Numbered from the stretch's first letter, positions 7,733 to 52,624 are shown. The stretch is DNA of 64,000 nucleotides from Methanoregula sp. PtaB.Bin085 (GCF_002067035.1 NZ_MVQB01000060.1:103499-167498); one strand, 5' to 3'. Notes: generated from the sequence alone by a model not told the origin. Numbers and translations are program-made.

Positions 7733-7740
7733 GGTTTCTG

Positions 7741-32909: not shown

Positions 32910-33025
32910 TCACCAGATCTTGACCTTTGTCAGGAAAAACCGTTGGGATAAATATTACTCACCCCGGGAATGATCCGCCAATCAGCAGTCAGGATCAGGA
33001 TAACTGTCGGGAAGGGTACTCTGGA

Positions 33026-33505
33026 ATGACCTTTGAATGCCAGCAATGCGGCGACTGCTGCAGTACGATGGGAGAGATTATCAGGATCCGTGACCGGATC
33101 GGACAATGGGAATTCCGGATAGGATTCACAAACGGGGAGGAGAGGATCGTCTCCATCGATCCGGATAAGCGGGATCTCTTCCGGATTCGGGAAGAGACAG
33201 ATAAAAAAACCATCGCATGCCCGTTTCTCCGGAAGCAACCCCCTGAAAAGCGGATCTGTACAGTCCATTCAAGCCGGCCGGAACTCTGCCGGGCCTACAT
33301 CTGTTCGAGAATCCTCGTACTGAACACGAACGGGAAAAAAGCAGGGCGGGTTCCGGATGGAACCCGCATCTTCGTCACAGAAGACCGGTTCCTTCTCGAT
33401 CTCTGGAATACAACCCTGAGGAATGTCCAGACCCGGGACGAGGAAGAGTGGGAAAGGATAATTGAGGATGTTTTCAAAAAGGAAGGGTACACGGTGATTC
33501 GGTGA
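33026..33505 (+). CDS. YkgJ-family cysteine-cluster protein (CxxCxxCC)
   Basis: Starts MTFECQQCGDCCS, later ACPFL...ICTVHSSRPELCRAYIC. Second member of this family in the window. Confidence 0.65.
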   Translation: MTFECQQCGDCCSTMGEIIRIRDRIGQWEFRIGFTNGEERIVSIDPDKRDLFRIREETDKKTIACPFLRKQPPEKRICTVHSSRPELCRAYICSRILVLNTNGKKAGRVPDGTRIFVTEDRFLLDLWNTTLRNVQTRDEEEWERIIEDVFKKEGYTVIR

Positions 33506-33528: not shown

Positions 33529-34497
33529 TCATATCTTCTGCCTGAGTTCCTGTATCAGAGCATCGCCGAATTCACGGGTCCCGGTGGTTCCTCCCAGATC
33601 CCTGGTACGAATTCCCCGGTTCAGTACCTGCAGTACGGATTCCTCAATACACCCGGCACCGTTCGGGTCGCCAAGATGATCGAGGAGCATGGCTGCGCTC
33701 CGGATAGCTGCAACAGGGTTTGCAATATTCCTGCCTGCGATATCGGGAGCGCTCCCGTGGACCGGTTCGAAGAGAGCATAGCGATCCCCGATGTTCGCGC
33801 TTGGCACAACGCCAAGGCCTCCCACGAGGTATGCCGCGACGTCGGAGAGGATATCGCCGAACATGTTCGTTGTGACAACCACATCGTAGCTCTTCGGGTG
33901 CTGGAGCAGGTCAAGGGAGAGCGCGTCAATGAACCTGTCGTTGCAAGCGATATTGGCAGCCTTTGCTTCGGAAAGACAGATATCCCGGAAAAAAACGTCT
34001 GATTTGATGACGTTCGCCTTGTGCCCGATGGTCAGGATACCCTTTCTCTGCCGGGCAAGATCAATTGCTTTTCTGATAATCCGTTCTGTACCCTTCCTGC
34101 TGACAACCCGCAGCGTTGTAGCGCGATCGGGGGTCGTCTCTTCAATGCCCGAGTAAAGCCCTTCCGTGTTCTCACGGACGATCATGATATCGATGCCATC
34201 TCCCCTCACAGGCCGGAGATTGGCATACAGATCGAGCGCTTTACGGATCCGCAGGACAACGCTCTGGTAATCCTTCATCGGGGGTGTGGTTATTGCACCG
34301 AACAGGATAGCATCCGAGTTTTTCAGTTGCGCGATATCCGGGTCCGTGCAGGGACATCCTGTCCTCTCCCACCTGCCGTAGCCAACCTCGACATTGAAAA
34401 AGTCATACTCGGGATGCAGCAGTTCGAGCACGCTGCGGGCAACCGGAATAACTTCATGACCGATCCCGTCACCCTCCACGACTGCTATCCGGGTCAT
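33529..34497 (-). CDS. aksF: homoisocitrate / isopropylmalate dehydrogenase family (probable AksF)
   Basis: [16 protein letters not shown]...LFGAITTP...[14 protein letters not shown]...IVRENTEG...NMFGDILSD. Last gene of the aks operon. The aksF versus leuB assignment rests on context. Confidence 0.8.
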
Positions 34498-35294
34498 CCC
34501 CGCCTCCCGCGCGCTGCCAGGGCCCGGACTGCCTCAAGGATCTTTACCGGTTCTGATCCCCAGTGGACGATAGCGCCGCTTTTCCCGTTCCACGATGACA
34601 CTGCTTCCCGTTCGCTCCGGCAGCAGCGGGCTATGAAAGGTTCTTCCCTGACACATTCAAGCGGGCAGATATTGGTGATGGTAAAATCCGAACCGTAACA
34701 TTCGTTCAGGAACTGGGTGGCAGTCAGACAGCCGGCAACCTGCTCCCCGCCATGCATGGCATCGGCATCGAGGGTCCGGGCAAACCCTCCGGCCCGGCAG
34801 GGGTATACATCCGCGCGAACCTCGGTGATATCCCGGATATGGTGCACGAACTGCACATTAAGGTTGCCAAAAAGCCCGGCATTCTCAAGTTCACGGATAC
34901 CGGACGAAAGGCTTGGCCGTGGCGGGCTCACGTCATAGACATGTATCTTCAGGAAACCTGACAGATCGGGATCGAGAACAAAGGTCATGTGTTCGTCGTG
35001 GCCGGAAAAGATCGTGCAGCGGTATCCCGTGTCGAGAGCCAGTTCAACGAGGCGTGTGCGGTTGTGGAGGTTTACCTTTTCCGGATAGTGATAGACCTCG
35101 TTCTCACGGGCGAGGACCCGACTCGAGACAACCTGCCTCATCATGCCTTTGTGGGTCTGGTCCAGGGTAACTTCGAGCAGCTCGTGTCCACCGGAAGTGT
35201 CCCGCAGCAGCCACCGGCTTAAAAAATAAACCCTTTCGTCGCAGGGTTTTGCCGATGCATGACCGACATGCTTGCAGTGCTCCGGAAAGATCAC
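34494..35294 (-). CDS. uncharacterised Cys-rich protein embedded in the aks operon
   Basis: 266 aa if started at GTG 35294 (GTGA overlap with the aksE stop). The 3' end makes an ATGA overlap with the aksF start. Contains CPLEC...CC and several His. No family recognised. An alternative ATG (MMRQVV) would leave a 145-nt gap. Confidence 0.55.
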   Translation of the reverse strand: MIFPEHCKHVGHASAKPCDERVYFLSRWLLRDTSGGHELLEVTLDQTHKGMMRQVVSSRVLARENEVYHYPEKVNLHNRTRLVELALDTGYRCTIFSGHDEHMTFVLDPDLSGFLKIHVYDVSPPRPSLSSGIRELENAGLFGNLNVQFVHHIRDITEVRADVYPCRAGGFARTLDADAMHGGEQVAGCLTATQFLNECYGSDFTITNICPLECVREEPFIARCCRSEREAVSSWNGKSGAIVHWGSEPVKILEAVRALAARGRRG

Positions 35295-35761
35295 GGACGC
35301 CCCCTCCAGTACCTGATCAGGCCTCCCGCTGCGAGAATGTCCCGCATCCTCGGGGAAAGGGGCCGGATAGAATAGGTATTCCCGCCGGTTTCCACGCATC
35401 CTGCCGCGAGATCGAATTTCACATTCTGCCCTTCCACGCACGGAAGGCTGCATTCTATGGCCGGAAGACCGACATTTATGGCATTCCGGAAAAAGATCCG
35501 GGCAAATGACGGTGCAATTACTGCTGTAACACCAGCTTCCTTCAGCGCCAGCGCTGCCTGTTCACGCGAGGACCCGCAGCCGAAATTCTTTCCGGCTACA
35601 ATGACCGCCCCGTTCATCCGGGCTGCAAGCGAGGGATCGAGATCCTCGAACACATGGGAAACCCATATTCCGTGATCCTTTGTTCTCAGGTAACGCCCGG
35701 CTATGATCAGATCCGTGTCGATGTCCGGACCGAGACAGACCGCATGACCTCCCCCCTGCAT
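35291..35761 (-). CDS. aksE: homoaconitase small subunit (AksE/HacB)
   Basis: LeuD-like swivel domain (DTDLIIAGRYL..., GKNFGCGSSREQAA). The specificity loop reads YLRT with Arg26-Thr27, the homoaconitase-type residues of M. jannaschii HacB. Confidence 0.85.
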   Translation of the reverse strand: MQGGGHAVCLGPDIDTDLIIAGRYLRTKDHGIWVSHVFEDLDPSLAARMNGAVIVAGKNFGCGSSREQAALALKEAGVTAVIAPSFARIFFRNAINVGLPAIECSLPCVEGQNVKFDLAAGCVETGGNTYSIRPLSPRMRDILAAGGLIRYWRGRP

Positions 35762-36970
35762 TCATCCCACCTCCGGTTCGGTGATCTCACCAGTGAGGGC
35801 GCTCGCACCAGCGGTTGCAACGGATGAGAGATATATTTCTCCGCCAACTCCCATCCGGTTCCTGAAATTCCGGTTTGCTGTGGAGAGGCAGACTTCGCCT
35901 TCACCAAGAACCCCCATGTGCGCCCCGAGACACGGCCCGCAGCCGGGCGTACCGATCGTGCATCCCGCCGCCACGAGATCCGCGATAACCCCCGTGCGGA
36001 TCGCTTCTGAAAGGACTGCCCGCGATGCCGGGACAACAATGGTCCGTACTGCAACGTTCTTTCCTTTCAGGATCCCTGCAAGGCGGGCAAGATCGCTGAA
36101 ACGCCCGTTTGTGCAGGCACCGACAAAGACCTGGTCGATAGGGATACCGGCCAGGTCACTGACGGGTTTTACCGTGTCCACCCGTGGCGGCACCGCAATG
36201 AGCGGGACGATATCGCTCAGATCAAATTCCAGTTCCCGGCTGTACATGCAGGAGTCCGGGACCTGGGGCTGAACTTTCTGTCCCTTGCCTGCAAGGTACT
36301 GCAAGGTAATGTGGTCAGCATAGAACATGCCGGTCTTGGCACCGGTCTCCACCGAGAGATTGCAGAGCGTCAGCCGGTCATCCATTCCAAGGTTCTTTAC
36401 CCCGTCTCCAATAAATTCGAGGGCACAGTATGTCCCTCCGTCCATCCCAAGCCTGCTGACATACAGGAGGGCGAGGTCTTTTGCCTCCGCACTACCCTGC
36501 AGCGACCCGGTGAGGCTGATGCCGATGGAGTCCGGGACCCGGAACCAGGTCTCTCCGGTCAGCCATATCGCTGCCATGTCCGTTGCACCGACACCGGTCG
36601 CGAACGCACCGAACGCGCCGGGTGTACAGCTGTGCGAGTCGGCCCCGACAACCACCTCGCCTGGCAACACGACACCTTCACTCATCAGCTGATGGCAGAT
36701 CCCGCCTCCGATATCGGAGAAGTGCATGAACGACCCGCAGGCAAAATCACGGAGTTCGTGCTGGAGGGTGGCCGTGGTGGAGTTGTTCGCCGGGACGATG
36801 TGGTCGAAAAGAACATACAGGTCCGGATCGTCGCTCAACCGGTTGCCCATCTGCTTCCAGGTTTCGAGTGTCAGCACACCGGTCCCGTCGTGGACATAGG
36901 CCCGGTCCACTTTCCTGTCCACATACTCCCCTGCATCTGCTCCGAGGATTCGTTCCGAGAGCGTGCTCAT
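35762..36970 (-). CDS. aksD: homoaconitase large subunit (AksD/HacA)
   Basis: Aconitase-family large subunit (VGADSHSCT, ...GACTNGR..., PGCGPCLG cluster ligands). Start at MSTLSERILG (ATG 36970) forms an ATGA overlap with the aksA stop. Confidence 0.85.
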   Translation of the reverse strand: MSTLSERILGADAGEYVDRKVDRAYVHDGTGVLTLETWKQMGNRLSDDPDLYVLFDHIVPANNSTTATLQHELRDFACGSFMHFSDIGGGICHQLMSEGVVLPGEVVVGADSHSCTPGAFGAFATGVGATDMAAIWLTGETWFRVPDSIGISLTGSLQGSAEAKDLALLYVSRLGMDGGTYCALEFIGDGVKNLGMDDRLTLCNLSVETGAKTGMFYADHITLQYLAGKGQKVQPQVPDSCMYSRELEFDLSDIVPLIAVPPRVDTVKPVSDLAGIPIDQVFVGACTNGRFSDLARLAGILKGKNVAVRTIVVPASRAVLSEAIRTGVIADLVAAGCTIGTPGCGPCLGAHMGVLGEGEVCLSTANRNFRNRMGVGGEIYLSSVATAGASALTGEITEPEVG

Positions 36971-38094
36971 GCAGGAGACTCCTTTACTTTCCGGATCAGC
37001 TTCCTCAGCACCTCCGGCGTTATGTTGCACTTGTGCTCGGAATGGTCCTTGACAAGGTCGAGCACCCTGCAGACCTGCTTCTCCGAAAGCTCACAGCCCA
37101 TTGAGGAGACGACATGTTCGAGTGCCTTCTTCCCGGTGTGTTTCCCGAGGATGAAATGCCGCTCGCTGCCCACGAGATCCGGAGGGAAGTACTCGTACGT
37201 GGCGGGATCGTCGAGAATGGCGGCAATGTGGATTCCGCTCTCGTGCGAGAACGCAAGCTCCCCGGTGACGGGCTTGTTCCGCGGGAGGGAGACACCGGAA
37301 TACTTTTCCACCATGTGCGAGAGTTCCGTAAGGTGCGAGAGGTCGTAGCGGTCGATCCCCTTCTTCATCCGGAGGGCGACGAGAAGCTCCTCGAGCGATG
37401 CGTTCCCCGCCCGCTCCCCGATTCCGTTGACCGTGGTATGGAGCTGGAAGGCACCTGCCTCAGCAGCCGTGATTGTATTAGCCACCGCGCAACCCATGTC
37501 GTTGTGGCAGTGGGCACAGAATGGCCGGTCTACGGATGCGACAAGCTCGGTCATAATCCGCTGCATGTCGGAGGGTATGAGGCAGCCCACGGTATCTGCG
37601 AACGAGAGCAGGACTGCACCGTGCTCTGCAGCCCGCCGGTATACCTCCTTGAGGAAACCGAGATCCGTCCGGGATGCGTCTTCGGCAGCAAACCGTACCT
37701 GGACACCATGGTCACGGGCATAATCGATCATTCTCAGGGAGTCCTCAAGTACCTGATGCCGGGGTTTTTTGAATTTTACACGGACATGGAGTTCCGAGGT
37801 CGGGATGAAGATACTGACCATGTCGACACCACAGTCGATTGCGGTCTGGATATCGGCTTCCTTTGCCCGCGAGAAACCACAGATACGGGCATCGAGCCCG
37901 AGATGTGCTATGGTTTTCACACACTCTTTCTCATTTGCCGACACCGCCGGGAACCCGGCCTCGATGACTTCGATCCCGATCTCGTCGAGTCTGGTTGCGA
38001 TAGCAACCTTCTCCTGGCAGGAGAACGAGACTCCAGGCGTCTGTTCCCCGTCCCGCAGGGTCACATCACAGATCTCAATATGCAACGGTTTCAT
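36967..38094 (-). CDS. aksA: homocitrate synthase-type 2-oxoacid:acetyl-CoA condensing enzyme (probable AksA)
   Basis: DRE-TIM core (ICDVTLRDGEQTPGV...HCHNDMGCAVAN...GIGERAGN). Only 375 aa, so it lacks the LeuA/CimA C-terminal regulatory domain, as AksA does. Confidence 0.8.
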   Translation of the reverse strand: MKPLHIEICDVTLRDGEQTPGVSFSCQEKVAIATRLDEIGIEVIEAGFPAVSANEKECVKTIAHLGLDARICGFSRAKEADIQTAIDCGVDMVSIFIPTSELHVRVKFKKPRHQVLEDSLRMIDYARDHGVQVRFAAEDASRTDLGFLKEVYRRAAEHGAVLLSFADTVGCLIPSDMQRIMTELVASVDRPFCAHCHNDMGCAVANTITAAEAGAFQLHTTVNGIGERAGNASLEELLVALRMKKGIDRYDLSHLTELSHMVEKYSGVSLPRNKPVTGELAFSHESGIHIAAILDDPATYEYFPPDLVGSERHFILGKHTGKKALEHVVSSMGCELSEKQVCRVLDLVKDHSEHKCNITPEVLRKLIRKVKESPA

Positions 38095-39346
38095 GACTGC
38101 ATCCCTCCGGACAAACTCCTTCCACAACAAGTGTTCGCGGCGTGTCCGTCACCACGAGTTCACGTTCAAGCGTCCGGATCTCCCCCGCCCCGCAGACCAC
38201 GGGTGTTGCCCATGACAGGTAAGGGAGGGGATCCGGCACCGGCTGCCCGCCGGTCATGGCCGCACGGGTATTCTTCATAACGATACAGAGCATCGGAAGC
38301 TGTCCGGTATATACATCAATGAGTGCATTCAGGCCGGAATGGAGCAGCGCATAATCACCAATAAGGGCAACCTTTGTGCTCCGTGCAGCGACTGCTATAC
38401 TTGCTCCCATGCCATAACTTGCCATCCCAAGTTCGTACGGGCGGTTCATCGCCAGGATCGAACAGCCGGCATCGCAGATCACCTGCATACCCCGCTCCTT
38501 CAGGATCTTCAGCATCTGGTGATAGGGGCAGTTCCGGCAGAACGTCCGGGAGAAGCCCCTGCCTTCCATTGTTGCAGGTGGCCCCCGGGGTTCCGGAGGC
38601 AGAACTCCCCGATGGTACCGGATGAAGGCACGACCGCACTCATGAACCTCATGGATCCCTGCTGCCTGTGCCGGTACCGGGTTCACGGTCACGATCCGGG
38701 TCGTTCCGGGAGCCGGGCCGGCCCCGGCAGGTCCGCCATGCCAGTGGTTCAGCGGCGAATCGGTTGACCAGTCGGACATCCGGCGGTACAACTCGCCTGC
38801 CGCAGTTGCCCGACCATTCATCGTCCATGCCCGGTTCGCGAGCCGGCCCCGCCGGTCAGCGCGTTGCACGGGGAGATCCTTCGCCTCCGCATCCAGGACG
38901 CCGGGAGTCAGCCGGAGCAGGGTCACCCGTGAGAACTCTTCCGATGCCTGAAACGCAGCTTCGACCGCCGCGTGGAAGCAGGACGGATCCGGTTCGATGA
39001 CCGGTATTTCGGCAAGCTCTCCGTAATACCGCGAATCCTGGGCAGTCTGCGATCCCTTTGCCTCCGGGTCATCGCCGGCCACGAGCACGACTCCGGCGAC
39101 CAGGCCCTGGTTCACGGCCTGGACGAGAGGATCGGCACACGCGTTCACCCCGACATTCTTGACGATGACTGCAGCCCGCCTGCCTGCGATAGAATCGCCA
39201 AGAGCATATTCCAGGGCAGTCTTCTCGTTGATAACGAGCCTGGCTCCGGCAAGGATCGCAAGATCTGTGATCGGGTAGCCCGGAACGGTGTACAGCCGAT
39301 CGGTCGATCGGATAAGTGCATCCGCCACAACCGCTGAACCGTTCAT
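38075..39346 (-). CDS. thiamine-diphosphate enzyme, IorA-like but lacking ferredoxin domain and beta subunit
   Basis: The N-terminal Pyr domain (VPGYPITDL...NEKTALEYALGDSIAGRRAAVIVKNVGVNACADPL) and C-terminal PP domain (FCRNCPYHQ...DAGCS...GMGASIAVA...IGDYALLHSG...NTRAAMTGGQP) resemble indolepyruvate:ferredoxin oxidoreductase alpha. There is no CxxCxxCxxxC module. ATGA overlap with the radical SAM stop. Confidence 0.75.
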   Translation of the reverse strand: MNGSAVVADALIRSTDRLYTVPGYPITDLAILAGARLVINEKTALEYALGDSIAGRRAAVIVKNVGVNACADPLVQAVNQGLVAGVVLVAGDDPEAKGSQTAQDSRYYGELAEIPVIEPDPSCFHAAVEAAFQASEEFSRVTLLRLTPGVLDAEAKDLPVQRADRRGRLANRAWTMNGRATAAGELYRRMSDWSTDSPLNHWHGGPAGAGPAPGTTRIVTVNPVPAQAAGIHEVHECGRAFIRYHRGVLPPEPRGPPATMEGRGFSRTFCRNCPYHQMLKILKERGMQVICDAGCSILAMNRPYELGMASYGMGASIAVAARSTKVALIGDYALLHSGLNALIDVYTGQLPMLCIVMKNTRAAMTGGQPVPDPLPYLSWATPVVCGAGEIRTLERELVVTDTPRTLVVEGVCPEGCSHETVAY

Positions 39347-40311
39347 CCGTCCCTCCCCGGAACGAGATCGCATCCGCAGCAGTTCGTGCACATCGTGACA
39401 GCCTGCCAGGGATCGAGACCTGCTTGTTCAAGTGCGTCTTTGTGGATGGCAAAGATCTTCCTGAGCCGTTCCGCGGTCGGCCGGGGCGTCCCGGCCATCC
39501 CGGCAACCGGGTTGAGGGGTCGAAGGACCGGGATGACCCCATGGGATGTCAGCTGCCGGATGCATGCCTCCATCTCATCATCTGTTTCCCCAAGGCCGAT
39601 GATGACATTGGAAAAGACGCGGTTCTTTCCGAAGAGTTCCACGGATCGATCGAGAACCTGCCAGAGCAGACCGTAATCGAGGCCCGGGCACATCTGTGCA
39701 AAAAGATCAGGGGTCGCTGCCTCGAGATTGAACTTCACTTCCGCAACTCCGAGTGCCTTCAGCCGATCGGGAGTCTGCCCCGTGGGATAGATCGAGACAC
39801 CGATGGGGAGGTTAAAGAATGTGAGGTGTTTTACGACATTCAGCACGTATGCCTCCTCCTCTCCGATGGTCTCAAGGACTCCGCTGGTGACGGAGATCGC
39901 ATGGATTCGGTGCACTGCCGGTTCAACCATCCCCATGATCTCCCCGATGGTCTTACGCCTTCCCCCGAGGGTCGGGACCGGGCAGTACCGGCACCTGAAT
40001 ATACAACTACCGGTGACCGTGATGAACGCCTGGTCGGGGCAGTGGTACCCGGGTTCCAGAAGCCGTCCTGTGGCCTGGTTCCCGTCATAGAAGAGATCCG
40101 CAATCCCGTTCCCGCGGTGGGCGATCTCGATATCTCCCAGAGGGTCCAGCGCGAGCCTGACGCGGTGGCTCCCCATGGCAAAGAAGACTGATCCCTTCCC
40201 ACCGGCTCCCGGGCCGGCAGCTGAACGGGCAATGAACTGGTCCGCCGGCTCACCGCTCAGCCGGGCCGTCCCTGCTTCGAGCAGCCTTGCCTTCAGGTCT
40301 TTCCACTGCAT
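39343..40311 (-). CDS. radical SAM enzyme (BioB/LipA-like core) with C-terminal CxxCCxC motif
   Basis: CIFRCRYC (CxxxCxxC) after an approximately 100-aa N-terminal domain; IIGLGETDDE motif; C-terminus MCTNCCGCDL. Confidence 0.85.
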   Translation of the reverse strand: MQWKDLKARLLEAGTARLSGEPADQFIARSAAGPGAGGKGSVFFAMGSHRVRLALDPLGDIEIAHRGNGIADLFYDGNQATGRLLEPGYHCPDQAFITVTGSCIFRCRYCPVPTLGGRRKTIGEIMGMVEPAVHRIHAISVTSGVLETIGEEEAYVLNVVKHLTFFNLPIGVSIYPTGQTPDRLKALGVAEVKFNLEAATPDLFAQMCPGLDYGLLWQVLDRSVELFGKNRVFSNVIIGLGETDDEMEACIRQLTSHGVIPVLRPLNPVAGMAGTPRPTAERLRKIFAIHKDALEQAGLDPWQAVTMCTNCCGCDLVPGRDG

Positions 40312-41189
40312 AATTCCAGCGCCTCCTCATACCGGGTAAAGAAGGGGATTGCCGCCACAGCCCCCGTAATGCCCCGCCCGTGGATGATAATACGGAGACA
40401 AGGGTCCCGGATCGATGAAATGAGTCCGGAATCGACCTCTCCCCGTTTGACCTTCCTTCCGTATTCAAGCAGATTGTCTGATACGGAAAAACCGGAATAC
40501 ACCGCCATGCCGGTCTTCGTTGAGAGGGTGTATTTCTCCAGCAGCGTACGGAACCTGCTGATGAGGCTTTCCGGATCAGTTGTCGCGAACTCAGCAGCCA
40601 GAGCAACACAGTTCTTGGTGCGGTACGCAACCGGGAAGAGCTGCACAATCGTATGCGACAGGTACACAGTATGTTCATCCTCAACTGAACGGGAGATATT
40701 GTGGACGAGTGTCCATGTCGCTCCCTCATCAGGAGTATCCGTATCATCTACGCCGATCACGATCCGCTGCATCCGTTGCAGCCAGAGGGTGGCCCCGGCA
40801 ACTTTCCCGCCACCGGCAGGATCGCTCCTGCTCCGCAGTACGCCTGTGGCATCGGACCGGCAGGCCGCAGCTCCCACACCTCCGCCACCCATACCGATAT
40901 ACGTCACTGCGATCTCGTCGCCGTCAACAATGCAGGACGAGATTCCGGCAGGAAACCGCGAACCCTCAAGAGCCAGATCGACACTCCCGGCCTTCAGGAG
41001 ATACCGCATGGTGGAACCTACACAGCGGACATCTTCAACAATCGGACTCTGCGCATAGTGCTTTTTCGACCACATTGCCCCGCCGGTACAGTCAAAGAAC
41101 TCGATGAGCTCGACCCGCTTTCCTGCCGAATCGGCCACCGCCGCGATCCGCGGGTAGTGGATCACGTACGGATCAGAGATGCTCTCCAT
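40293..41189 (-). CDS. TiaS-kinase-domain-like protein, paralogue 2
   Basis: 298 aa. The C-terminal half has IVIGVDDTDTPDEGATW...VQLFPVAYRTKNC...IHGRGITGAVAA, resembling the N-terminal kinase module of tRNA agmatidine synthetase TiaS (from memory). N-terminal Gly-rich loop GMGGGGVGAAAC. Paralogous to 41173-42129. Confidence 0.7.
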   Translation of the reverse strand: MESISDPYVIHYPRIAAVADSAGKRVELIEFFDCTGGAMWSKKHYAQSPIVEDVRCVGSTMRYLLKAGSVDLALEGSRFPAGISSCIVDGDEIAVTYIGMGGGGVGAAACRSDATGVLRSRSDPAGGGKVAGATLWLQRMQRIVIGVDDTDTPDEGATWTLVHNISRSVEDEHTVYLSHTIVQLFPVAYRTKNCVALAAEFATTDPESLISRFRTLLEKYTLSTKTGMAVYSGFSVSDNLLEYGRKVKRGEVDSGLISSIRDPCLRIIIHGRGITGAVAAIPFFTRYEEALELCSGKT

Positions 41190-42129
41190 ACAGGCCTGCC
41201 GCCTCGGTTCCCCTATTGCCCCATACTACGGCCCCGAGAGCCCCGATCCGTCCCTTTCCGCCGGTCCGGTCGAGATACTCGATTCCCAGCGTTTCTGCTT
41301 CACGCTCTGCCTCATCCATAGAAAGGATTTCGGTCTTGATCCACTTCGCAACGGGTGCATCGGAAAAATCCCTGATCCCGTGGTAACAGGCTATGCCGGT
41401 CTCCCTGGAGAACGTGTTCTTTTCCACGAATGCCCGGACCGATTCCAGCAGGACCGGGATCCGGGCCGGCTTCACCGCGAAGTTCAGGGAGGTACTGACG
41501 CAGTTCGTGGTTTTGTGCGGGACCGCGGGATTGAGCTGGACGAGCCGCATATTCAAAAACTCGACTCCTTCCATCCTGCAGGCTTCGGCACACTTCAGTG
41601 CCATTACCCACGTCGCCCCGTCTGTCTTCGTGTCCGTGTCATCGATACCGATACAGATTTTCTCGTACCGCGGCGAGACGATACGGACATGGTTGGTCCG
41701 GGCACCGCCAACTTTTAAATCCTCATCAGAAGGATATTCCGTTCTGATGACGCCGGGGGCCTGCGGGAGGCAGGCTGCAACGCCAATACCGGCACCCGCA
41801 ATCCCTGCCCAGCTGGTGATCACCTCGTCTCCCGCGACTTCGACGCCTTCCAGCGCCTGCCCTCCGATATCCCCGGCTGCCGATCCGAAGTTCACCGGGA
41901 ATTTCCCGAGCTTTGCGTGAATGGTCATGGAGGACCCTTCAATCTCGCACCGGACAACTGCACCACCGGCCCTGCGACGGTTCATAGCATCCCATTCAAT
42001 TGTGCCCCGGACCCGGCACTGCTCATGGATCTCGGCAACGCCCGCCCGTTCATCCACCAGTACCAGGAATTTTTGTGCAAAGAGCGGCCCGAACCGCTTT
42101 TTCACGTCGTCAGGAATCAGGGTGATCAT
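41173..42129 (-). CDS. TiaS-kinase-domain-like protein, paralogue 1
   Basis: 318 aa. ICIGIDDTDTKTDGATW...RLVQLNPAVPHKTTNC...GGKGRIGALGAV plus N-terminal GIAGAGIGVAAC. First gene of the operon, with TTTAAATA (42174-42181) upstream. Confidence 0.7.
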   Translation of the reverse strand: MITLIPDDVKKRFGPLFAQKFLVLVDERAGVAEIHEQCRVRGTIEWDAMNRRRAGGAVVRCEIEGSSMTIHAKLGKFPVNFGSAAGDIGGQALEGVEVAGDEVITSWAGIAGAGIGVAACLPQAPGVIRTEYPSDEDLKVGGARTNHVRIVSPRYEKICIGIDDTDTKTDGATWVMALKCAEACRMEGVEFLNMRLVQLNPAVPHKTTNCVSTSLNFAVKPARIPVLLESVRAFVEKNTFSRETGIACYHGIRDFSDAPVAKWIKTEILSMDEAEREAETLGIEYLDRTGGKGRIGALGAVVWGNRGTEAAGLYGEHL

Positions 42130-45341: not shown

Positions 45342-46265
45342 ATGTCAGAAGCAGGCGCAAACCACAAATTCGCATTCTACCTCGGATGCATCGCCCCCAA
45401 CCGGTACCCCGGTGTCGAATCGGCCTCCATCAAGGCCATGAAGAAACTGGGCGTGGAGCTCGTCCCCCTCAAGGGTGCCAGCTGCTGCCCCGCACCCGGT
45501 GCATTCGGCTCGATCGACCTCAAGGTCTTCTACGCCATGGCCGCACGGAACCTCGTGCTCGCCGAGCAGATGAAGATGGACATCGCCCTTGTCTGCAATG
45601 GCTGCTACAAGTCGATCTGGGAGGTCAACCACAAGCTCAAGCACAACAAGGACCTCCGCGATGACGTGAACGAAGTCCTCAAGGAGATCGACATGGAGTA
45701 CAAGGGGACCATCAACGTGTACCACACCGCGGAACTCCTGTACAACGACAAGTTCATCGGCGTTGAGAAAGTCCGCGACAGCGTGACGAATCCCCTGACC
45801 GGTGCCCGCATCGCCGTCCACTACGGCTGCCACCTGGTCAAGCCCCACAAGGACCGCGAGTTCGAGAAGGAAGTCATGCTCAACACCGAATGCCCGACCT
45901 GGATGGAAGAGCTTGTCGCCGCCCTCGGCGCAACCCCGGTCGAGTACCGCAACAAGATGCAGTGCTGCGGTGCCGGCGGCGGTGTCCGCGGGTACGATAT
46001 CGTCCACGCGCTGGACATCACCAACGAGAAGCTGTACAACCTTGAGGAAGTCAAGGTGGACGCCCTCACCGATATCTGTCCGTTCTGCCAGCTCCAGTTC
46101 GACCGCGGCCAGATCGAGATCCAGGAGAAACTCGGCGCCAGGCACAGCATACCGGTACTTCACTTCGCCGAACTCCTCGGCCTTGCACAGGGAATGAGCC
46201 CGCAGGAACTCGGGCTGGACCTCCACGGTATCAGCTGCGAACCATTCCTGCAGAAGGTGCTGTGA
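45342..46265 (+). CDS. hdrB: CoB-CoM heterodisulfide reductase subunit B
   Basis: Two CCG domains (...ASCCPAPG..., ...MQCCGAGGG...; CPFCQLQ), 307 aa. Confidence 0.95.
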   Translation: MSEAGANHKFAFYLGCIAPNRYPGVESASIKAMKKLGVELVPLKGASCCPAPGAFGSIDLKVFYAMAARNLVLAEQMKMDIALVCNGCYKSIWEVNHKLKHNKDLRDDVNEVLKEIDMEYKGTINVYHTAELLYNDKFIGVEKVRDSVTNPLTGARIAVHYGCHLVKPHKDREFEKEVMLNTECPTWMEELVAALGATPVEYRNKMQCCGAGGGVRGYDIVHALDITNEKLYNLEEVKVDALTDICPFCQLQFDRGQIEIQEKLGARHSIPVLHFAELLGLAQGMSPQELGLDLHGISCEPFLQKVL

Positions 46266-46275
46266 GGTGGTAAAA

Positions 46276-48462
46276 ATGGCAGAAAAGAAGAAAGCAACCA
46301 CCAAGAAAACCGAGTCCAAGAAAGAGGACACCAAGAAGGTAGCTCCCGTGAAACAGGAAGTCAAGAAGCAGGCAGCAGCACCTGCCGCAAAGCCCAAGGC
46401 AGCAGCCGCAAGCGCAGCTGCCCCGGCGAAGGCAACCGTCGGCAGCACTACCAAGCAGGGTGACGCACGCATCGGCGTGTTCATCTGCCACTGCGGTACC
46501 AACATCGCCGGTTCGATGGACATCGAAGCTGTCCAGGCATATGCAAAGACGCTCCCGAACGTTGCCTATGTTGATAACTACAAGTACATGTGCTCGATGC
46601 CCGGGCAGAGTGTCATCAACAAGGCAGTCAAGGAGAACAAGCTGACCGGTGTCGTTGTTGCTGCATGCTCGCCCCGTCTCCACGAGCCGACGTTCAGGAC
46701 CGCAACCAAGGAGTCCGGCCTGAACCCGTTCCGGTTCGAGATGGCCAACATCCGCGAGCAGAACTCGTGGGTGCACATGCACGACCGCGAAGGCTCGACC
46801 GACAAGGCAAAGGACGCAGTAAGGATTGCCGTTGCCAAAGCAGCGCTCCTCCAGGACCTCTTCCCCAAGAGCGTGCCGGTCGAGAAGGCAGCCATGGTCG
46901 TCGGTGCCGGTGTCGCCGGCATGCAGGCAGCCCTTGACCTTGCGGCAGCAGGGATCAAGACCTACCTCATCGAGTCCGACATGAGTATCGGCGGGCGCAT
47001 GTCCCAGCTCGACAAGACCTTCCCGACGCTCGACTGCTCGCAGTGTATCCTGACCCCGAAGATGGTGGATGTCGGCCGGAGCGACAAGATCGAGCTCATG
47101 ACCTGGTCCGAGGTCCACGAAGTCGAAGGGTACATCGGAAACTTCGACGTCACCATCCGGAAGAAGGCCCGCGGTGTCATGACGCCCAAGGAAGCGGAAG
47201 CGAAGGGCATCGTCGGCGGCGGCTGCAACGGCTGCGGTGACTGCGAGGCAGTCTGCCCGGTCGTCAAGCCCAACGAGTTCGAGATCGGCATGAAACCGCG
47301 GAAGGCCATCTACATCAACCACCCGCAGGTCGTGCCCCTGATCTACACCATCGACTTCAACTCCTGCGTCAAGTGCGGCCTCTGCGTGACCGCCTGCGGT
47401 CCCGAGAAGCGGGCAATCGACCTCGAGATGAAGGACGAGTTCGTCAAGGTCAAGGTCGGGACGGCTATCCTCGCGACCGGCTACGACATCTTCCCCATCG
47501 AGAAGAAAGAGGAGTGGGGATACAAGCGGTTCGAGAACGTTATCACGAGCCTCGAGTTCGAGCGGCTTATCTGCGCATCCGGCCCGACCGGCGGCCACCT
47601 GGTCCGCCCGAGCGATGGCCAGACCCCGAAGAGGGTCGCATTCGTGCTCTGTGCAGGCTCCCGTGACAACACCGGCACCGGCAAGCCCTACTGCAGCCGG
47701 TTCTGCTGCATGTACTCGCTCAAGCACGCCCACCAGATCATTGAAAAGATCCCGGGATGCGTTCCCTACATCTTCTATATGGATATCCGTTCCTTCGGCA
47801 AGATGTACGAGGAGTTCTATTACCGCATCCAGGACGAGGGTGCGAAATTCATCCGCGGCCGCGTGGCCAATATCCTCGAGGATCCCAAGACCAAGAACCT
47901 CCATGTCATGACCGACGATACACTCCTGAACCGCCCTGTTGACATGGAAGTCGACATGGTTGTTCTCGCGGCAGCAATCCAGCCCAAAGAAGACACGAAC
48001 CGGACCCGCAAGCTCTTCGGTGTCTCCTGTTCCATGGACGGCTGGCTGCTCGAAGCCCACCCGAAGCTGAACCCGTGCGGAACCACCACGGCCGGTGTCT
48101 TCCTTGCCGGTGTCTGCCAGGGGCCCAAGGATATCCCCGACACGGTAGCATCCGCAGAAGGTGCGGCATCCGCGGCATCCATCCCGATCCACATGGGAGA
48201 AGTCGAGCTCGAGCCCTACTTTGCCTCCTGTATCGAGGAGAAGTGTGCAGGCTGCGGCATGTGTGTCAACCTCTGCCCCTACAGCGCTCTGTCGCTCGTA
48301 GAGAAAGATGGCCGGACCGTGATGCAGGTCACCGAGGCCAAGTGCAAGGGCTGCGGTACCTGCGGCGGATTCTGCCCCGGTGGCGCAATCTGGATGAATC
48401 ACTTTGCAACGCCCCAGATCGTTGCTCAGATCGATGCCTTCCTGCTCGGAGGTGAGCAGTAA
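46276..48462 (+). CDS. hdrA: CoB-CoM heterodisulfide reductase subunit A, with Lys/Ala/Pro-rich N-terminal extension
   Basis: HdrA core from ARIGVFICHCGTNIAG onwards, with an FAD fold (VVGAGVAGMQAAL) and several CxxCxxCxxxCP motifs. ATG 46276 is preceded by GAGGTGG. The ORF track starts at GTG 46267. Confidence 0.95.
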   Translation: MAEKKKATTKKTESKKEDTKKVAPVKQEVKKQAAAPAAKPKAAAASAAAPAKATVGSTTKQGDARIGVFICHCGTNIAGSMDIEAVQAYAKTLPNVAYVDNYKYMCSMPGQSVINKAVKENKLTGVVVAACSPRLHEPTFRTATKESGLNPFRFEMANIREQNSWVHMHDREGSTDKAKDAVRIAVAKAALLQDLFPKSVPVEKAAMVVGAGVAGMQAALDLAAAGIKTYLIESDMSIGGRMSQLDKTFPTLDCSQCILTPKMVDVGRSDKIELMTWSEVHEVEGYIGNFDVTIRKKARGVMTPKEAEAKGIVGGGCNGCGDCEAVCPVVKPNEFEIGMKPRKAIYINHPQVVPLIYTIDFNSCVKCGLCVTACGPEKRAIDLEMKDEFVKVKVGTAILATGYDIFPIEKKEEWGYKRFENVITSLEFERLICASGPTGGHLVRPSDGQTPKRVAFVLCAGSRDNTGTGKPYCSRFCCMYSLKHAHQIIEKIPGCVPYIFYMDIRSFGKMYEEFYYRIQDEGAKFIRGRVANILEDPKTKNLHVMTDDTLLNRPVDMEVDMVVLAAAIQPKEDTNRTRKLFGVSCSMDGWLLEAHPKLNPCGTTTAGVFLAGVCQGPKDIPDTVASAEGAASAASIPIHMGEVELEPYFASCIEEKCAGCGMCVNLCPYSALSLVEKDGRTVMQVTEAKCKGCGTCGGFCPGGAIWMNHFATPQIVAQIDAFLLGGEQ

Positions 48463-48921
48463 ATGTCTGCACCCGGAAACTTCCCGATCCCCGAAAGAGG
48501 CCCCGGCATCTGGCAGCCCAAGATCCAGGGCATCGTCTGCAACTGGTGTTCCTATGCCGGTGCCGACCTTGCCGGTGGTGGCCGTATCCAGTACCCCCCG
48601 GACATCCGGATCGTGCGCGTCATGTGCACGGGCCGTATCGACTCGCTCTTCGTCCTGAAGGCGTTTGCCGACGGGGCGGATGGCGTGCTCGTCTCCGGTT
48701 GTCACTTCGGTGACTGCCACTACCTTGAAGGCAACTACAAGGCAGCCAAGAGGATGTTCATGGTCAAGCGCCTGATGAAGAGCATCGGCCTTGACGACCG
48801 CCGCTTCCGGATGACCTTTGTCTCGGCATCCGAAGGCGCAAAGTGGGGCGCTGTTGTTACGGACGTTGTCAAGACGATCCGCGAACTCGGGCCCAGCCCC
48901 ATCACCGAACTCAAGAAATAA
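48463..48921 (+). CDS. mvhD: MvhD-type iron-sulfur subunit (F420-non-reducing hydrogenase delta / Hdr-associated)
   Basis: VCNWCSYAGADLAG...VMCTGRID...GADGVLVSGCHFGDCHY. The ATG directly abuts the hdrA stop. Confidence 0.95.
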   Translation: MSAPGNFPIPERGPGIWQPKIQGIVCNWCSYAGADLAGGGRIQYPPDIRIVRVMCTGRIDSLFVLKAFADGADGVLVSGCHFGDCHYLEGNYKAAKRMFMVKRLMKSIGLDDRRFRMTFVSASEGAKWGAVVTDVVKTIRELGPSPITELKK

Positions 48922-49119
48922 CCAGGCTGTGGCGGGGGAGATAACTCTCCCGTCGCATAATGTAAAAACCGGACACGCCTATCGCACCAGACGATGCACT
49001 GCAAACCGGTTCCGGGGGTGCCGTATGCCCGGATTGTTCCTGATTCCGGGAATGCACAGCAACCCCTCCCTTTTTATACAGAGCGCACCGGAAAATCGAA
49101 GGATTCATACCATGGAATT

Positions 49120-49413
49120 CGATTTCGTAATAATAATTTTAGTTTTCGTAATACTGCGTAAAACAATGAAACGTGACAAATATGTAGTATTTGAACATTC
49201 CTTCTTTTTTTTGAATTATCGCCTGTGATTAATAAAATGATTTTCCGGGATAAAATCGGAATACTTATATGGCGAAATCTGGAATTATTCAATGTCCCTT
49301 CCTAGGGGACGTGCAATAGCGACTTTCATTCATTACCAGTATCCCCGCTAGGGTATACTCTCGCTCACTGACAGTACTGTATAGCGGTTAAACGACAATT
49401 TGGAGGAATTCAA
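49120..49413 (+). promoter_or_regulatory. AT-rich mcr promoter/leader region with hairpins
   Basis: AT-rich tract with TATA-like ACTTATAT (49263-49270), hairpins at 49294-49310 and 49338-49359, palindrome ACAGTACTGT (49371-49380), and GGAGGA 7 nt before the mcrB ATG. The transcription start is not determinable from sequence. Confidence 0.35.
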
Positions 49414-50727
49414 ATGGCAAAATACAAAGATGCAGTAGACCTTTACGACGATGAGGGTAAGCTCTTAAAGAGCAATGTTACCATCGACAAGGTCAGCCCG
49501 CTGGTCAACAAGGGAACCGCAGGCATCATCGACCTCACCAAGAGGACCGTTGCAGTCAACCTCGCCGGTATCGAGGACGCACTCAAGACCGGTAAGATGG
49601 GTGGCAAGAACAACCAGATCCTCGGCCGCAGCATGAGCTGCAGCTGTGTCAAGGATGCAGATGCACTCGCAGCCAGGATCAAGGACATGGTCCAGGTCAC
49701 CGATGGCGACAACACCAAGATCACCAAGGTCGGCGGCGGCAAGCTGCTCCTTGTTGAGGTCCCGAGCGCCCGTCTCGACGCCGCGGCAACCTACGATGCG
49801 GCGTCCACCGCGGTTGCAGCAGCAACCACCTACGCGGTCATCGACCAGTACAAGGTTGGAATGTTCGACGGTGCATACGTCAAGTCCGCTATCTGGGGTT
49901 CCTACCCGGTAACCATGGACATGGCAGGCGGCAACATCGTCTCCATTATGTCCATCCCCCAGAACAACGAAGGCCTCGGCTACGCACTCCGCAACATCCC
50001 GGCAAACCACGCGGTCATGATGACCCACCGGAATGCAATCCAGGCAGCAGCCCTGATGTCGACCTTTGAACAGGCCGGCGAATTCGAGATGGGCATGGCA
50101 ATCGGCCCGTTCGAGCGCGCCCAGCTCCTGCTCTACGCATACCAGGGACTGAACGCAAACAACATGGTCTACGACCTCGTCAAGAAGAACGGCAAGACCG
50201 GTACCATCGGTACTGTTGTCCAGAGCCTTGTCGAGCGTGCCATTGAGGACAAGGTCATCAAGGCAGGCAAGAAGGGCAAGAGCGGCTACATCTTCTACGA
50301 GACCAAGGACCCCATGCTCTGGAACGCCTACGCATCCGCAGGCACCCTCGCTGCAACCATGGTCAACTGTGGTGCAGGACGGTTCGCCCAGGCAGTCTCC
50401 GCAACCCTGCTCTACTTCAACGACCTGCTCGAGCACGAAACGGGCCTCCCCGGCTCTGACTTCGGCCGTGCAATGGGTGTTGCAGTCGGGTTCTCGTTCT
50501 TCAGCCACTCGATCTACGGTGGCGGCGGCCCCGGTGGATTCAACGGTAACCACGTCGTTACCCGCCACGCAGCCGGTGTCGGTATGCCCTGTATCGCAGC
50601 CGCATGCGCTCTCGATGCAGGCACCCAGATGTTCGGCCCCGAGGCAACCTCGAAGGTCTACCAGGACACCTTCGGCCAGATTGACGCGTTCAAGAGGCCG
50701 ATGCAGACGATCGCAAAGGCTGTATAA
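49414..50727 (+). CDS. mcrB: methyl-coenzyme M reductase beta subunit
   Basis: 437 aa, MAKYKDAVDLYDDEGKLL..., full-length McrB. First gene of mcrBDCGA. Confidence 0.97.
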   Translation: MAKYKDAVDLYDDEGKLLKSNVTIDKVSPLVNKGTAGIIDLTKRTVAVNLAGIEDALKTGKMGGKNNQILGRSMSCSCVKDADALAARIKDMVQVTDGDNTKITKVGGGKLLLVEVPSARLDAAATYDAASTAVAAATTYAVIDQYKVGMFDGAYVKSAIWGSYPVTMDMAGGNIVSIMSIPQNNEGLGYALRNIPANHAVMMTHRNAIQAAALMSTFEQAGEFEMGMAIGPFERAQLLLYAYQGLNANNMVYDLVKKNGKTGTIGTVVQSLVERAIEDKVIKAGKKGKSGYIFYETKDPMLWNAYASAGTLAATMVNCGAGRFAQAVSATLLYFNDLLEHETGLPGSDFGRAMGVAVGFSFFSHSIYGGGGPGGFNGNHVVTRHAAGVGMPCIAAACALDAGTQMFGPEATSKVYQDTFGQIDAFKRPMQTIAKAV

Positions 50728-50741
50728 GCCCCTTTGATAAA

Positions 50742-51212
50742 ATGACAGAAGCCACGTTCCCCCAGTGCAGGATCGATTCCGAGCGGTTCATGAACCCCGA
50801 GACAACCGAGCGCCTGCTGAACCAGATCATATCAGTTCCCGGTGTACGGCGGATGGTCCTCAACGGACCCCGCCTTCCCGCGACTGTTCCCTTCGGTCCC
50901 GCCAAAGGATCTGCCAACCCTCACCCGATGAGGAAGACGATCAAGGTCGGCGACCAGGAGATGGAACTCCAGGTTCATGTAGGCACGGTCCTGCTCGAGC
51001 TCGAGAACTGTGACGTCATCCCTGCACTCAGGGCCGCAATCGAACCGGTGTTCAAGGATTTCTCCTTCCGGATCAAGGAAGGAAGGTTCATGAAGACCGA
51101 ACCGTCACTTGTGGATTACTGCAAATACGGCCCGAACGCGGACAAGGATATGATAGGCCTTGCTGATCCCAACAGCAAGTCCAGACCCGTAATCATTCAG
51201 GGAACCAAATAA
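50742..51212 (+). CDS. mcrD: methyl-coenzyme M reductase operon protein D
   Basis: 156 aa with an McrD-like sequence, located between mcrB and mcrC. Confidence 0.93.
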   Translation: MTEATFPQCRIDSERFMNPETTERLLNQIISVPGVRRMVLNGPRLPATVPFGPAKGSANPHPMRKTIKVGDQEMELQVHVGTVLLELENCDVIPALRAAIEPVFKDFSFRIKEGRFMKTEPSLVDYCKYGPNADKDMIGLADPNSKSRPVIIQGTK

Positions 51213-51847
51213 TGCCGATTGGTCGAGTAACCCAGGTTGTTGACTGCCGCGAGGCGATGGGCATGGGAAAAGGAGGCGGGATTGCCCAGCGGGGCACCAT
51301 CTCCGAATGCCGGTACCCGGACGTCATCGTGGTCGGGATGTCTCCCGGCCGCCGACACGTGACGAAACCGGTATGCGATATCACCTCAGGGCTGCGACAG
51401 CAGGGCGTCGAGTACAGCATCAGCACGCTGGTGCTGTATGCGGGGAGCGGCGTGCCCCCGGATGCACCGAAATTGGCCGGTGGCGTCCTTGGCGCTGCAA
51501 TGGGTATCACCGACAAAGAGATCGCACAGATAGAGAAACACAAGGTTGCCATCCTTCACCACGGGAACGTACGTTCCCATGTTGTTCAGAAGGTCAGGTT
51601 TATTCTCCAGGCCTGCGACGTGAAGGCGATCGTTGTTTCCCAGTGCCCGATCGATTACGAGGACCTCGCAAAGGAAGGCGTCAGGACGCCCTTCGTTATG
51701 CCGCCCGCGGACAGGATCCGTACGAAAGGTACGGTTATGGCCATTGTCAGCGGCGTGACAAGGGGTCAGACCCCCACGCGAGAGAAGATGGCTGAAGTCA
51801 TTTCATCGGTAATGAGAATCGTGAAAAAGAAGGAATCATTGGAGTGA
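51212..51847 (+). CDS. mcrC: methyl-coenzyme M reductase operon protein C
   Basis: 211 aa, MPIGRVTQVVDCREAMGMGKGGGIAQRGT.... TAATG 1-nt overlap with mcrD. Confidence 0.93.
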   Translation: MPIGRVTQVVDCREAMGMGKGGGIAQRGTISECRYPDVIVVGMSPGRRHVTKPVCDITSGLRQQGVEYSISTLVLYAGSGVPPDAPKLAGGVLGAAMGITDKEIAQIEKHKVAILHHGNVRSHVVQKVRFILQACDVKAIVVSQCPIDYEDLAKEGVRTPFVMPPADRIRTKGTVMAIVSGVTRGQTPTREKMAEVISSVMRIVKKKESLE

Positions 51848-51854
51848 TAAAATA

Positions 51855-52622: not shown

Positions 52623-52624
52623 TC

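Follow-up and report, generated by a model that had tools for sequence, protein, structure and literature searches.

The window analysed here, a 64,000-nucleotide stretch of DNA from Methanoregula sp. PtaB.Bin085, carries on its minus strand, at positions 38075-39346, a gene whose product is a derivative of the alpha subunit of indolepyruvate:ferredoxin oxidoreductase (IorA), with both thiamine diphosphate (ThDP) domains present and with domain II and the 2x[4Fe-4S] ferredoxin domain missing. This IorA-like gene is embedded in an operon with the aks genes, and we propose, with moderate confidence, that it encodes the dedicated 2-oxosuberate-decarboxylating enzyme of coenzyme B (CoB) biosynthesis. 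It encodes the only ThDP enzyme of an operon that otherwise makes 2-oxosuberate, being therefore the obvious candidate for the decarboxylation of this compound, and its conserved embedding among the aks genes makes 2-oxosuberate the most likely substrate, a placement that supports the substrate suggested in a preliminary description of this DNA.

The steps from 2-oxosuberate to CoB (decarboxylation, thiol formation, threonine ligation, and phosphorylation) were outlined by labelling decades ago, and to our knowledge no genes have been assigned to them. In this pathway, three rounds of Aks reactions convert 2-oxoglutarate into 2-oxosuberate, which is followed by a C7 semialdehyde (PMC3087415), and a 2025 paper still considered the pathway unknown (PMC12068725). 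In the literature searched, with subscription-only papers outside its scope, we found no paper that names a 2-oxosuberate decarboxylase or late CoB genes, nor any that assigns roles in CoB synthesis to methanogenesis marker protein 11 or to the DUF7714 protein, both of which are encoded in the same operon.

Identity and extent of the IorA-like gene

The longest open reading frame (ORF) at this locus spans 38075-39391 and would encode 438 amino acids from a GTG start at 39391. The ATG at 39346 has the sequence GGAGGG upstream and overlaps the stop codon of the preceding radical S-adenosylmethionine (SAM) gene, and the resulting 423 amino acids (plus stop) are the length of nearly all homologues among the 120 matches listed; therefore, we take 38075-39346 as the real gene. 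These data bear out the coordinates and the length of about 423 amino acids given in the preliminary description, as well as its ATGA coupling to the radical SAM gene and its 20-nucleotide overlap with aksA, the ATG of which (38094) lies within the end of the IorA-like gene.

One protein search detected 879 homologues at E<=1e-5, and 382 genome loci, at the species level, carried a homologue of the gene, whereas 56 cluster representatives matched the protein at E<=1e-30 in an exhaustive scan, so the existence of this gene is far beyond chance. The possibility of a pseudogene or of a truncated IorA fragment was rejected, as both the length and the residues are conserved among hundreds of orthologs.

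Domain anatomy and active site

The domains, named after those of IorA and of other 2-oxoacid:ferredoxin oxidoreductases (OFORs), are as follows (Pyr, pyrimidine-binding; PP, pyrophosphate-binding):

38867-39346, minus strand: Pyr (OFOR domain I-like) ThDP domain, residues 1-160, with GYPIT (Y24-T27), the catalytic Glu41 (NEK), and Arg106 (QDSR)
38585-38866, minus strand: variable linker, residues ~161-254, in the place of OFOR/IorA domain II, modelled with low confidence
38078-38584, minus strand: PP (OFOR domain VI-like) ThDP domain, residues 255-423, Pfam TPP_enzyme_C
38270-38359, minus strand: ThDP/Mg2+ binding motif G330-D331-Y ... N359, with D331 and N359 invariant

The sole Pfam match was TPP_enzyme_C (residues 324-386 of the 438-amino-acid ORF, 31.3 bits against a cutoff of 21.9). 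Among the NCBIfam models, IOR_alpha (TIGR03336) matched with an E value of 8e-41 and 140 bits, about a fifth of its cutoff (650.9); therefore, we regard the protein as IorA-like rather than as a bona fide IorA. The comparison of family models proposed in the preliminary description returned IOR_alpha below its cutoff and no match to the ComD or ComE models (NCBIfam, E<=0.01). The two ThDP domains claimed there were recovered, with the quoted strings present in the 423-amino-acid translation and with the TPP_enzyme_C and IOR_alpha matches.

Four sets of sequences were used to follow the conservation of individual residues: an alignment (A2) of the protein with 15 relatives, including short, intermediate-length, and canonical IorA forms; a second alignment with ten divergent short relatives (41-55% identity); a conservation set of 197 Methanoregulaceae sequences (58-91% identity); and a set of 120 representatives of the wider family. 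In the 15-relative alignment, N40-E41-K42, C270, C273, D292, G294, C295, G330-D331, N359, and C412 were invariant, and these same catalytic, ThDP, and cysteine residues were 100% conserved in the 197 close relatives, where T27, E41, and R106 were also invariant. Among the 120 representatives, E41 was invariant and R106 nearly so, with position 27 being mostly T and often S. The sequence GYPIT at residues 23-27 corresponds to the YPITP motif of OFORs, and Glu41 (NEK) aligns with the Glu of the EDE motif of the OFOR alpha chain 1yd7_A by way of canonical IorA, which aligns with this chain across the Pyr domain.

The intermediate and canonical forms have residues throughout the columns of domain II (~250-395 of A2), whereas these columns are nearly empty in the IorA-like protein, which ends around 11 residues past the point where the ferredoxin domain of canonical IorA begins. 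No CxxCxxCxxxC ferredoxin motif was found in its sequence or in its alignment with IorA; in this respect, the preliminary description was correct on the absence of the motif but not on its nature, as in IorA it belongs to a C-terminal domain and not to an insert.

The full-length AF2 model was confident (pLDDT 83.9, pTM 0.88), with pLDDT values above 90 in the Pyr domain and below 50 for residues 204-248 of the linker. When a model of the PP domain alone was used as a Foldseek query, OFOR beta chains appeared at ranks 1 (6n2n_B), 2 (5b48_B), 11 (5b46_B), 16 (8ys5_C), and 17 (9bt4_C), with TMq values of 0.60-0.64, yet 1-deoxy-D-xylulose 5-phosphate synthase and other ThDP enzymes scored alike. 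With the full-length model, enzymes of Pyr-TH3-PP organization dominated the matches (TMq 0.5-0.6), with chains ~130 residues longer and root-mean-square deviations of 13-17 A, so these matches do not discriminate between families. A family profile run against all PDB chains gave marginal matches, to oxalyl-CoA decarboxylase and 2-hydroxyacyl-CoA lyase (E>=0.003), and no OFOR beta match; consequently, sequence alone cannot place the PP domain. A protein of the Pyr-TH3-PP type (pyruvate decarboxylase/acetohydroxyacid synthase) was rejected, as TPP_enzyme_C was detected alone, with no TPP_enzyme_N or TPP_enzyme_M, and the PDB matches were marginal.

A conserved four-cysteine site

The protein has four cysteines at the positions expected for the ligands of an iron-sulfur cluster:

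38528-38539, minus strand: C270-x-x-C273-P, putative [4Fe-4S] ligands one and two, in the initial part of the PP domain
38462-38473, minus strand: D292-x-G-C295, third putative cluster ligand, invariant
38111-38113, minus strand: C412, fourth putative cluster ligand, 11 residues before the C-terminus

In OFORs, a conserved CXGC motif located where domain VI begins provides ligands for the proximal cluster (PMC5020499). The four cysteines of the IorA-like protein match the position of this proximal [4Fe-4S] motif, from which we infer a putative cluster site. They are invariant when compared with the ten short relatives, the intermediate forms, and canonical IorA, and 100% conserved in the 197 Methanoregulaceae sequences. 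Of the remaining cysteines in this set, those at positions 123, 237, and 416 vary widely, those at 70 and 291 are invariant, and those at 354 and 385 nearly so; in one relative of 480 amino acids (P0147), there are no cysteines beyond the four putative ligands. As the ferredoxin domain of IorA starts right after the fourth cysteine, these four are additional to its eight ferredoxin-type cysteines.

Among the 120 representatives, around 15 IorA-like proteins (~500-530 amino acids) had replaced all four cysteines, with DxGS for DxGC, while keeping the ThDP and catalytic residues and also lacking the ferredoxin domain. Representatives of this clade are P0170, P0173, P0186, P0189, P0194, P0195, P0204, P0214, P0216, P0242, P0244, P0245, P0253, and P0265. 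The two members that could be located (L093, 6001-7545, and L094, 6001-7563) adjoin genes for a nucleotidyltransferase, glycosyltransferases, and a GHMP kinase, and both loci are bacterial gene clusters of the sugar/polysaccharide type. This clade may be a non-redox offshoot of IorA. To judge from these sequences, the putative cluster site is under selection in the short family of Methanomicrobiales.

The preliminary description had presented the protein as having no Fe-S clusters and as "stripped of its redox parts". The first statement is contradicted by the complete conservation of the four cysteines of the IorA/OFOR proximal site in the 197 relatives. The second is half right, since domain II and the ferredoxin domain have indeed been lost, but the cysteines of the proximal-cluster site were kept by the short family in spite of belonging to a scaffold able to lose them. 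For the same reason, the argument that a protein without clusters must act non-oxidatively fails with the retention of the site, although the release of an aldehyde is itself possible. On the other hand, two intermediate-length relatives of Methanosarcinales type, P0163 (Methanolapillus millepedarum, L091 6001-7743) and P0154/P0325 (L088 8001-9692), have lost two of the four cysteines, the equivalents of C273 and C412, and kept the ThDP residues, which hints that the cluster could be dispensable in some lineages.

Operon and neighbouring genes

The IorA-like gene is the fourth of a nine-gene operon which runs on the minus strand from 42129 to 33529 in the order mmp11b-mmp11a-rSAM-IorA-like-aksA-aksD-aksE-DUF7714-aksF. 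The other eight genes are:

41173-42129, minus strand: second, divergent paralog of marker protein 11 (mmp11b), TIGR03280 with 185 bits, below cutoff; Pfam TiaS_TCKD
40293-41189, minus strand: methanogenesis marker protein 11 (mmp11a), TiaS kinase-like, TIGR03280 with 323.7 bits against 255.8; Pfam TiaS_TCKD and TiaS_FLD
39343-40311, minus strand: radical SAM gene (rSAM), 322 amino acids, Pfam Radical_SAM, with CxxxCxxC and a conserved C-terminal CxxCxGC
36967-38094, minus strand: aksA-type homocitrate synthase, its first 20 nucleotides within the IorA-like gene
35762-36970, minus strand: homoaconitase large subunit (aksD/hacA type), ATGA overlap with aksA
35291-35761, minus strand: homoaconitase small subunit (aksE/hacB type), Pfam and NCBIfam matches
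34494-35294, minus strand: DUF7714 protein, 266 amino acids, GTG start, GTGA overlap with aksE, Pfam E value 1.2e-86
33529-34497, minus strand: homoisocitrate dehydrogenase (aksF type), last gene of the operon, Pfam and NCBIfam matches

Consecutive genes overlap at seven of the eight junctions, three times by ATGA, once by GTGA, and three times by 17-20 nucleotides, with aksD and aksE abutting without overlap. A terminator-like hairpin followed by a run of T was found on the minus strand at 33367-33346, ~160 nucleotides past aksF; the promoter and terminator scan made use of bacterial models and was, save for this hairpin, uninformative for an archaeon. Upstream of the operon are located ftr, a divergent polyferredoxin-hdrC-hdrB unit, and mcrBDCGA (49414-54313).

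No domain of the POR/IorB type (Pfam) was found in the ~50 ORFs spanning 64-58160 of the window, and no OFOR beta subunit was detected either in the window or in 90 other loci. Thus, the earlier observation that no iorB-like gene follows holds, the next gene being aksA, and likewise that of the absence of a CoA-binding partner, as no IorB-type partner is encoded in cis.

Two putative ORFs between hdrB and mcrB, one of 829 amino acids (46231-48720, minus strand) and another of 136 (48818-49228, plus strand), gave no Pfam match. In addition, a protein with a putative zinc/iron-chelating domain of the CxxCxxCC type is encoded on the opposite strand past the end of the operon (32927-33505, plus strand), and many Methanoregulaceae loci, though not all of them, have a homologue of it close to the operon.

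Distribution and conserved linkage

The nine-gene order, with mmp11b as a variable member, is kept in essentially all the 80 loci of Methanoregula, Methanoregulaceae, and Methanolinea, as well as in Methanofollis sp. W23. The second marker 11 paralog is present in only some Methanoregulaceae loci and absent from many, and the DUF7714 gene is found between aksE and aksF in all the Methanomicrobiales loci examined. The short form of the protein is also encoded in Methanorbis (Methanocorpusculaceae). The IorA-like gene is the least conserved of the operon, as exemplified by locus L001, where it shows 73% identity compared to 93% for aksA and 85% for aksD and aksF; we suspect that the variable linker explains much of this lower conservation.

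Relatives of intermediate length (480-580 amino acids), which lack the ferredoxin domain and keep domain II, are widespread across the genera of Methanosarcinaceae and were detected in Methanosalsum, Methanolobus, Methanococcoides, Methanohalophilus, Methanomethylovorans, Methanotrichaceae, Methermicoccaceae, and metagenome-assembled genomes (MAGs) of Halobacteriota. In a crude neighbor-joining tree of the 120 representatives, built without bootstrap, the short family was monophyletic and the intermediate forms of methanogens constituted a separate clade; this tree was not used for claims on rooting or ancestry.

A single marker 11 gene directly precedes and overlaps the IorA-like gene both in Methanosalsum zhilinae (L083, 9093-10001) and in a MAG of Methanotrichaceae type (L085, 3049-3939). 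In a distant Halobacteriota MAG (L086), it is an ortholog of the radical SAM gene (7022-8008, 38% identity) that directly precedes and overlaps the IorA-like gene, and an aksA-like gene accompanies the pair. These three IorA-like genes encode proteins of intermediate length. An iorB neighbour was absent from all 11 contexts examined. In conclusion, the linkage of this gene to marker 11, radical SAM, and aks genes recurs independently across orders.

Candidate partner proteins

On grounds of homology and linkage, four operon proteins (the radical SAM protein, DUF7714, and the two marker 11 proteins) would suit the late steps of CoB synthesis. The radical SAM protein showed weak matches to the NCBIfam models of LipS2, LipA, and BioB (22.5 bits against a cutoff of 225 for the last one), and its nearest solved sequences were biotin synthase 1r30 (E value 0.0025) and lipoyl synthase 5exi. 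Its identification as a true BioB or LipA was rejected, as the scores are far below both cutoffs.

The kinase domain of TiaS activates a carbonyl by phosphorylation for the attack of an amine, and it also phosphorylates a threonine. These are the two chemistries needed to make a threonine-phosphate amide, so marker 11 fits the end of the pathway and could plausibly act as an ATP-dependent CoB amide synthetase or as a threonine kinase. The DUF7714 protein, in turn, has a distant but near full-length similarity to the NCBIfam XcbA family (E value 1.5e-15, 57 bits, below the cutoff of 150). In bacteria, the [2Fe-2S] protein XcbA forms the thiol of coenzyme M by reducing a thioaldehyde (PMC9457059), an activity that gives DUF7714 a plausible downstream role and makes it a candidate for the aldehyde/thioaldehyde-to-thiol step of CoB.

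Proposed role in coenzyme B biosynthesis

According to our proposal, the IorA-like enzyme would bind 2-oxosuberate, the C2 of which would be attacked by ThDP with the loss of CO2, and the resulting C7 hydroxyalkyl-ThDP intermediate would be resolved to 7-oxoheptanoate. Alternatively, the coupled radical SAM and DUF7714 proteins could receive the C7 unit directly from the enzyme and convert it into 7-mercaptoheptanoate. Marker 11 would then join 7-mercaptoheptanoate to threonine and carry out the phosphorylation. The retained cluster could be structural or serve as an electron port to partner proteins. With domain III and the ferredoxin domain missing, the release of the aldehyde would be the simplest outcome, and it is a possible one that agrees with the classical pathway; StOFOR1 of Sulfolobus tokodaii is reported to decarboxylate non-oxidatively without cluster or CoA (as cited in PMC5020499).

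Several points weigh against this assignment. The evidence for 2-oxosuberate as the substrate comes from the gene neighbourhood, and several of the intermediate-length relatives stand alone among uninformative neighbours. In addition, no members of the family were seen outside Methanomicrobiales, Methanosarcinales, and related Halobacteriota, so that if it provides the CoB decarboxylase, other orders of methanogens must use a different enzyme. The strict retention of the four cysteines argues against a plain non-redox decarboxylase, and a canonical IorB could be encoded elsewhere in the genome, the scope of our search being the 64-kb window.

The retention of the cysteines leads to the first alternative, in which the protein would be a redox-active, minimal OFOR that forms a functional unit with the radical SAM protein and decarboxylates 2-oxosuberate oxidatively. 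Electrons would exit through the [4Fe-4S] cluster to the BioB/LipA-like radical SAM protein and/or to the XcbA-like one, and a sulfur species would capture the ThDP-bound C7 acyl or hydroxyalkyl group, free 7-oxoheptanoate not being the product. We consider this rather unlikely, although several data point to it: the cluster cysteines are invariant in the family and lost in the bacterial IorA-like clade, the ATGA coupling to the radical SAM gene is conserved and recurs in a distant lineage with a radical SAM protein of 38% identity, and the nearest solved relatives of the latter are the sulfur-inserting biotin and lipoyl synthases. Moreover, StOFOR, which has a single cluster and no ferredoxin domain, is competent and passes electrons to an external partner. 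However, domain III/IorB, which would provide the acyl acceptor, is missing, an oxidation to the acyl level goes in the opposite direction to the thiol oxidation state that is needed, the two Methanosarcinales-type relatives mentioned above have done without two of the four cysteines, and the gene of Methanosalsum pairs with mmp11, with no radical SAM gene adjacent. The classical labelling work of R. H. White is also said to support a non-oxidative route via 7-oxoheptanoate, which counts against oxidative decarboxylation.

A broader version, to which we give a somewhat lower probability still, joins the minimal OFOR, the radical SAM protein, and DUF7714 into one machine that would convert 2-oxosuberate into 7-mercaptoheptanoate without free aldehyde, with marker 11 as both CoB amide synthetase and kinase. 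As part of this same joint reading, the retained [4Fe-4S] cluster would have a catalytic role, and the Fe-S centres would channel the electrons and the sulfur with which the ThDP-bound C7 intermediate is reduced and thiolated.

The enzyme could also serve biotin synthesis, as methanogens have been proposed to derive both CoB and biotin from 2-oxosuberate; OFOR-type oxidative decarboxylation of this compound would yield pimeloyl-CoA or pimelate, and the radical SAM protein would also act in the synthesis of biotin. The retained cluster cysteines and the best solved-structure match of the radical SAM protein, a biotin synthase, are in accordance with this option, which we nevertheless regard as very improbable: the radical SAM protein reaches a tenth of the BioB cutoff, bioF, bioA, and bioD are not in the operon, a CoA-binding domain is absent, and the conserved partners are marker 11 and an XcbA-like thiol-forming protein, in an operon located beside ftr, hdrCB, and mcrBDCGA.

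Finally, there is equally little to recommend an ordinary arylpyruvate/2-oxoacid oxidoreductase alpha paralog with IorB and ferredoxin in trans and an incidental position among the aks genes, for although the best family match is IorA, with which the catalytic and cluster residues are shared, and our view was limited to a 64-kb window of the genome, the score amounts to a fifth of the IorA cutoff, neither domain II nor the ferredoxin domain is present, the gene holds the same operon position, with codons overlapping those of its neighbours, in different families of Methanomicrobiales, the linkage to mmp11, radical SAM, and aksA genes appears independently in other orders, and iorB was adjacent in 0 of 11 contexts.

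Significance

CoB is required by every methyl-coenzyme M reductase and, hence, for essentially all biological methane formation and for the anaerobic oxidation of methane and alkanes. The IorA-like gene and its fixed neighbours represent a concrete set of candidates for the late CoB genes, which would fill a long-standing gap, and the IorA-like gene itself is the best candidate yet for the long-missing CoB decarboxylase. If the assignment is true, this decarboxylase would be the chain-length gatekeeper that sets the C7 arm of CoB, as well as a methanogen-specific target for inhibitors aimed at methane mitigation. If, instead, the three proteins were to work as one machine, the way in which they form a C-S bond on a ThDP intermediate would be new, and all the missing CoB synthesis genes would lie in one operon. 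The protein is also the most reduced of OFOR type in this analysis, consisting of two ThDP domains and one putative cluster site, and it therefore constitutes a natural experiment on the purpose of the proximal cluster.

Comparison with known systems

The closest family is IorA (TIGR03336), which likewise carries a Pyr and then a PP ThDP domain on a single chain and shares GYP(I/V)T, the Glu of NEK, the Arg of QDSR, GD..N, and the four cysteines (CxxCP ... DxGC ... C). In contrast to IorA, the window protein lacks domain II (~140 residues) and the C-terminal ferredoxin domain with its two CxxCxxCxxxCP motifs, and its gene has no adjacent iorB and is located in a CoB/aks operon instead of a context of amino acid catabolism.

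ComDE, the sulfopyruvate decarboxylase of the coenzyme M pathway, is a ThDP-dependent non-oxidative enzyme that converts a 2-oxoacid into an aldehyde that becomes a methanogen thiol coenzyme (PMC12713407). It would be the functional analogue of the role proposed here, whereas it belongs to a different branch of the ThDP superfamily from that of the window protein. We know of no cluster motif in ComDE.

The cluster-less bacterial IorA-like proteins (P0170, P0194, P0244, and others) are also derived from IorA, lack the ferredoxin domain, and keep the T/E/R residues and the ThDP motif. However, they have kept the length of domain II (~500-530 amino acids) and replaced all four cysteines, while the family of the window protein keeps every one of them.

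Finally, StOFOR1 and StOFOR2 from S. tokodaii (PDB 5B46-5B48) also lack an intramolecular ferredoxin domain and have a single proximal cluster, putative in the case of the window protein, with CxxC at the start of the PP domain (domain VI). They differ in having domain II and the CoA-binding domain III, and in being split into a and b subunits, whereas the window protein fuses Pyr and PP on one short chain in which domains II and III are absent. In conclusion, among the systems compared, the window protein comes closest in its way of working to a single-cluster OFOR of which the ThDP core is left.

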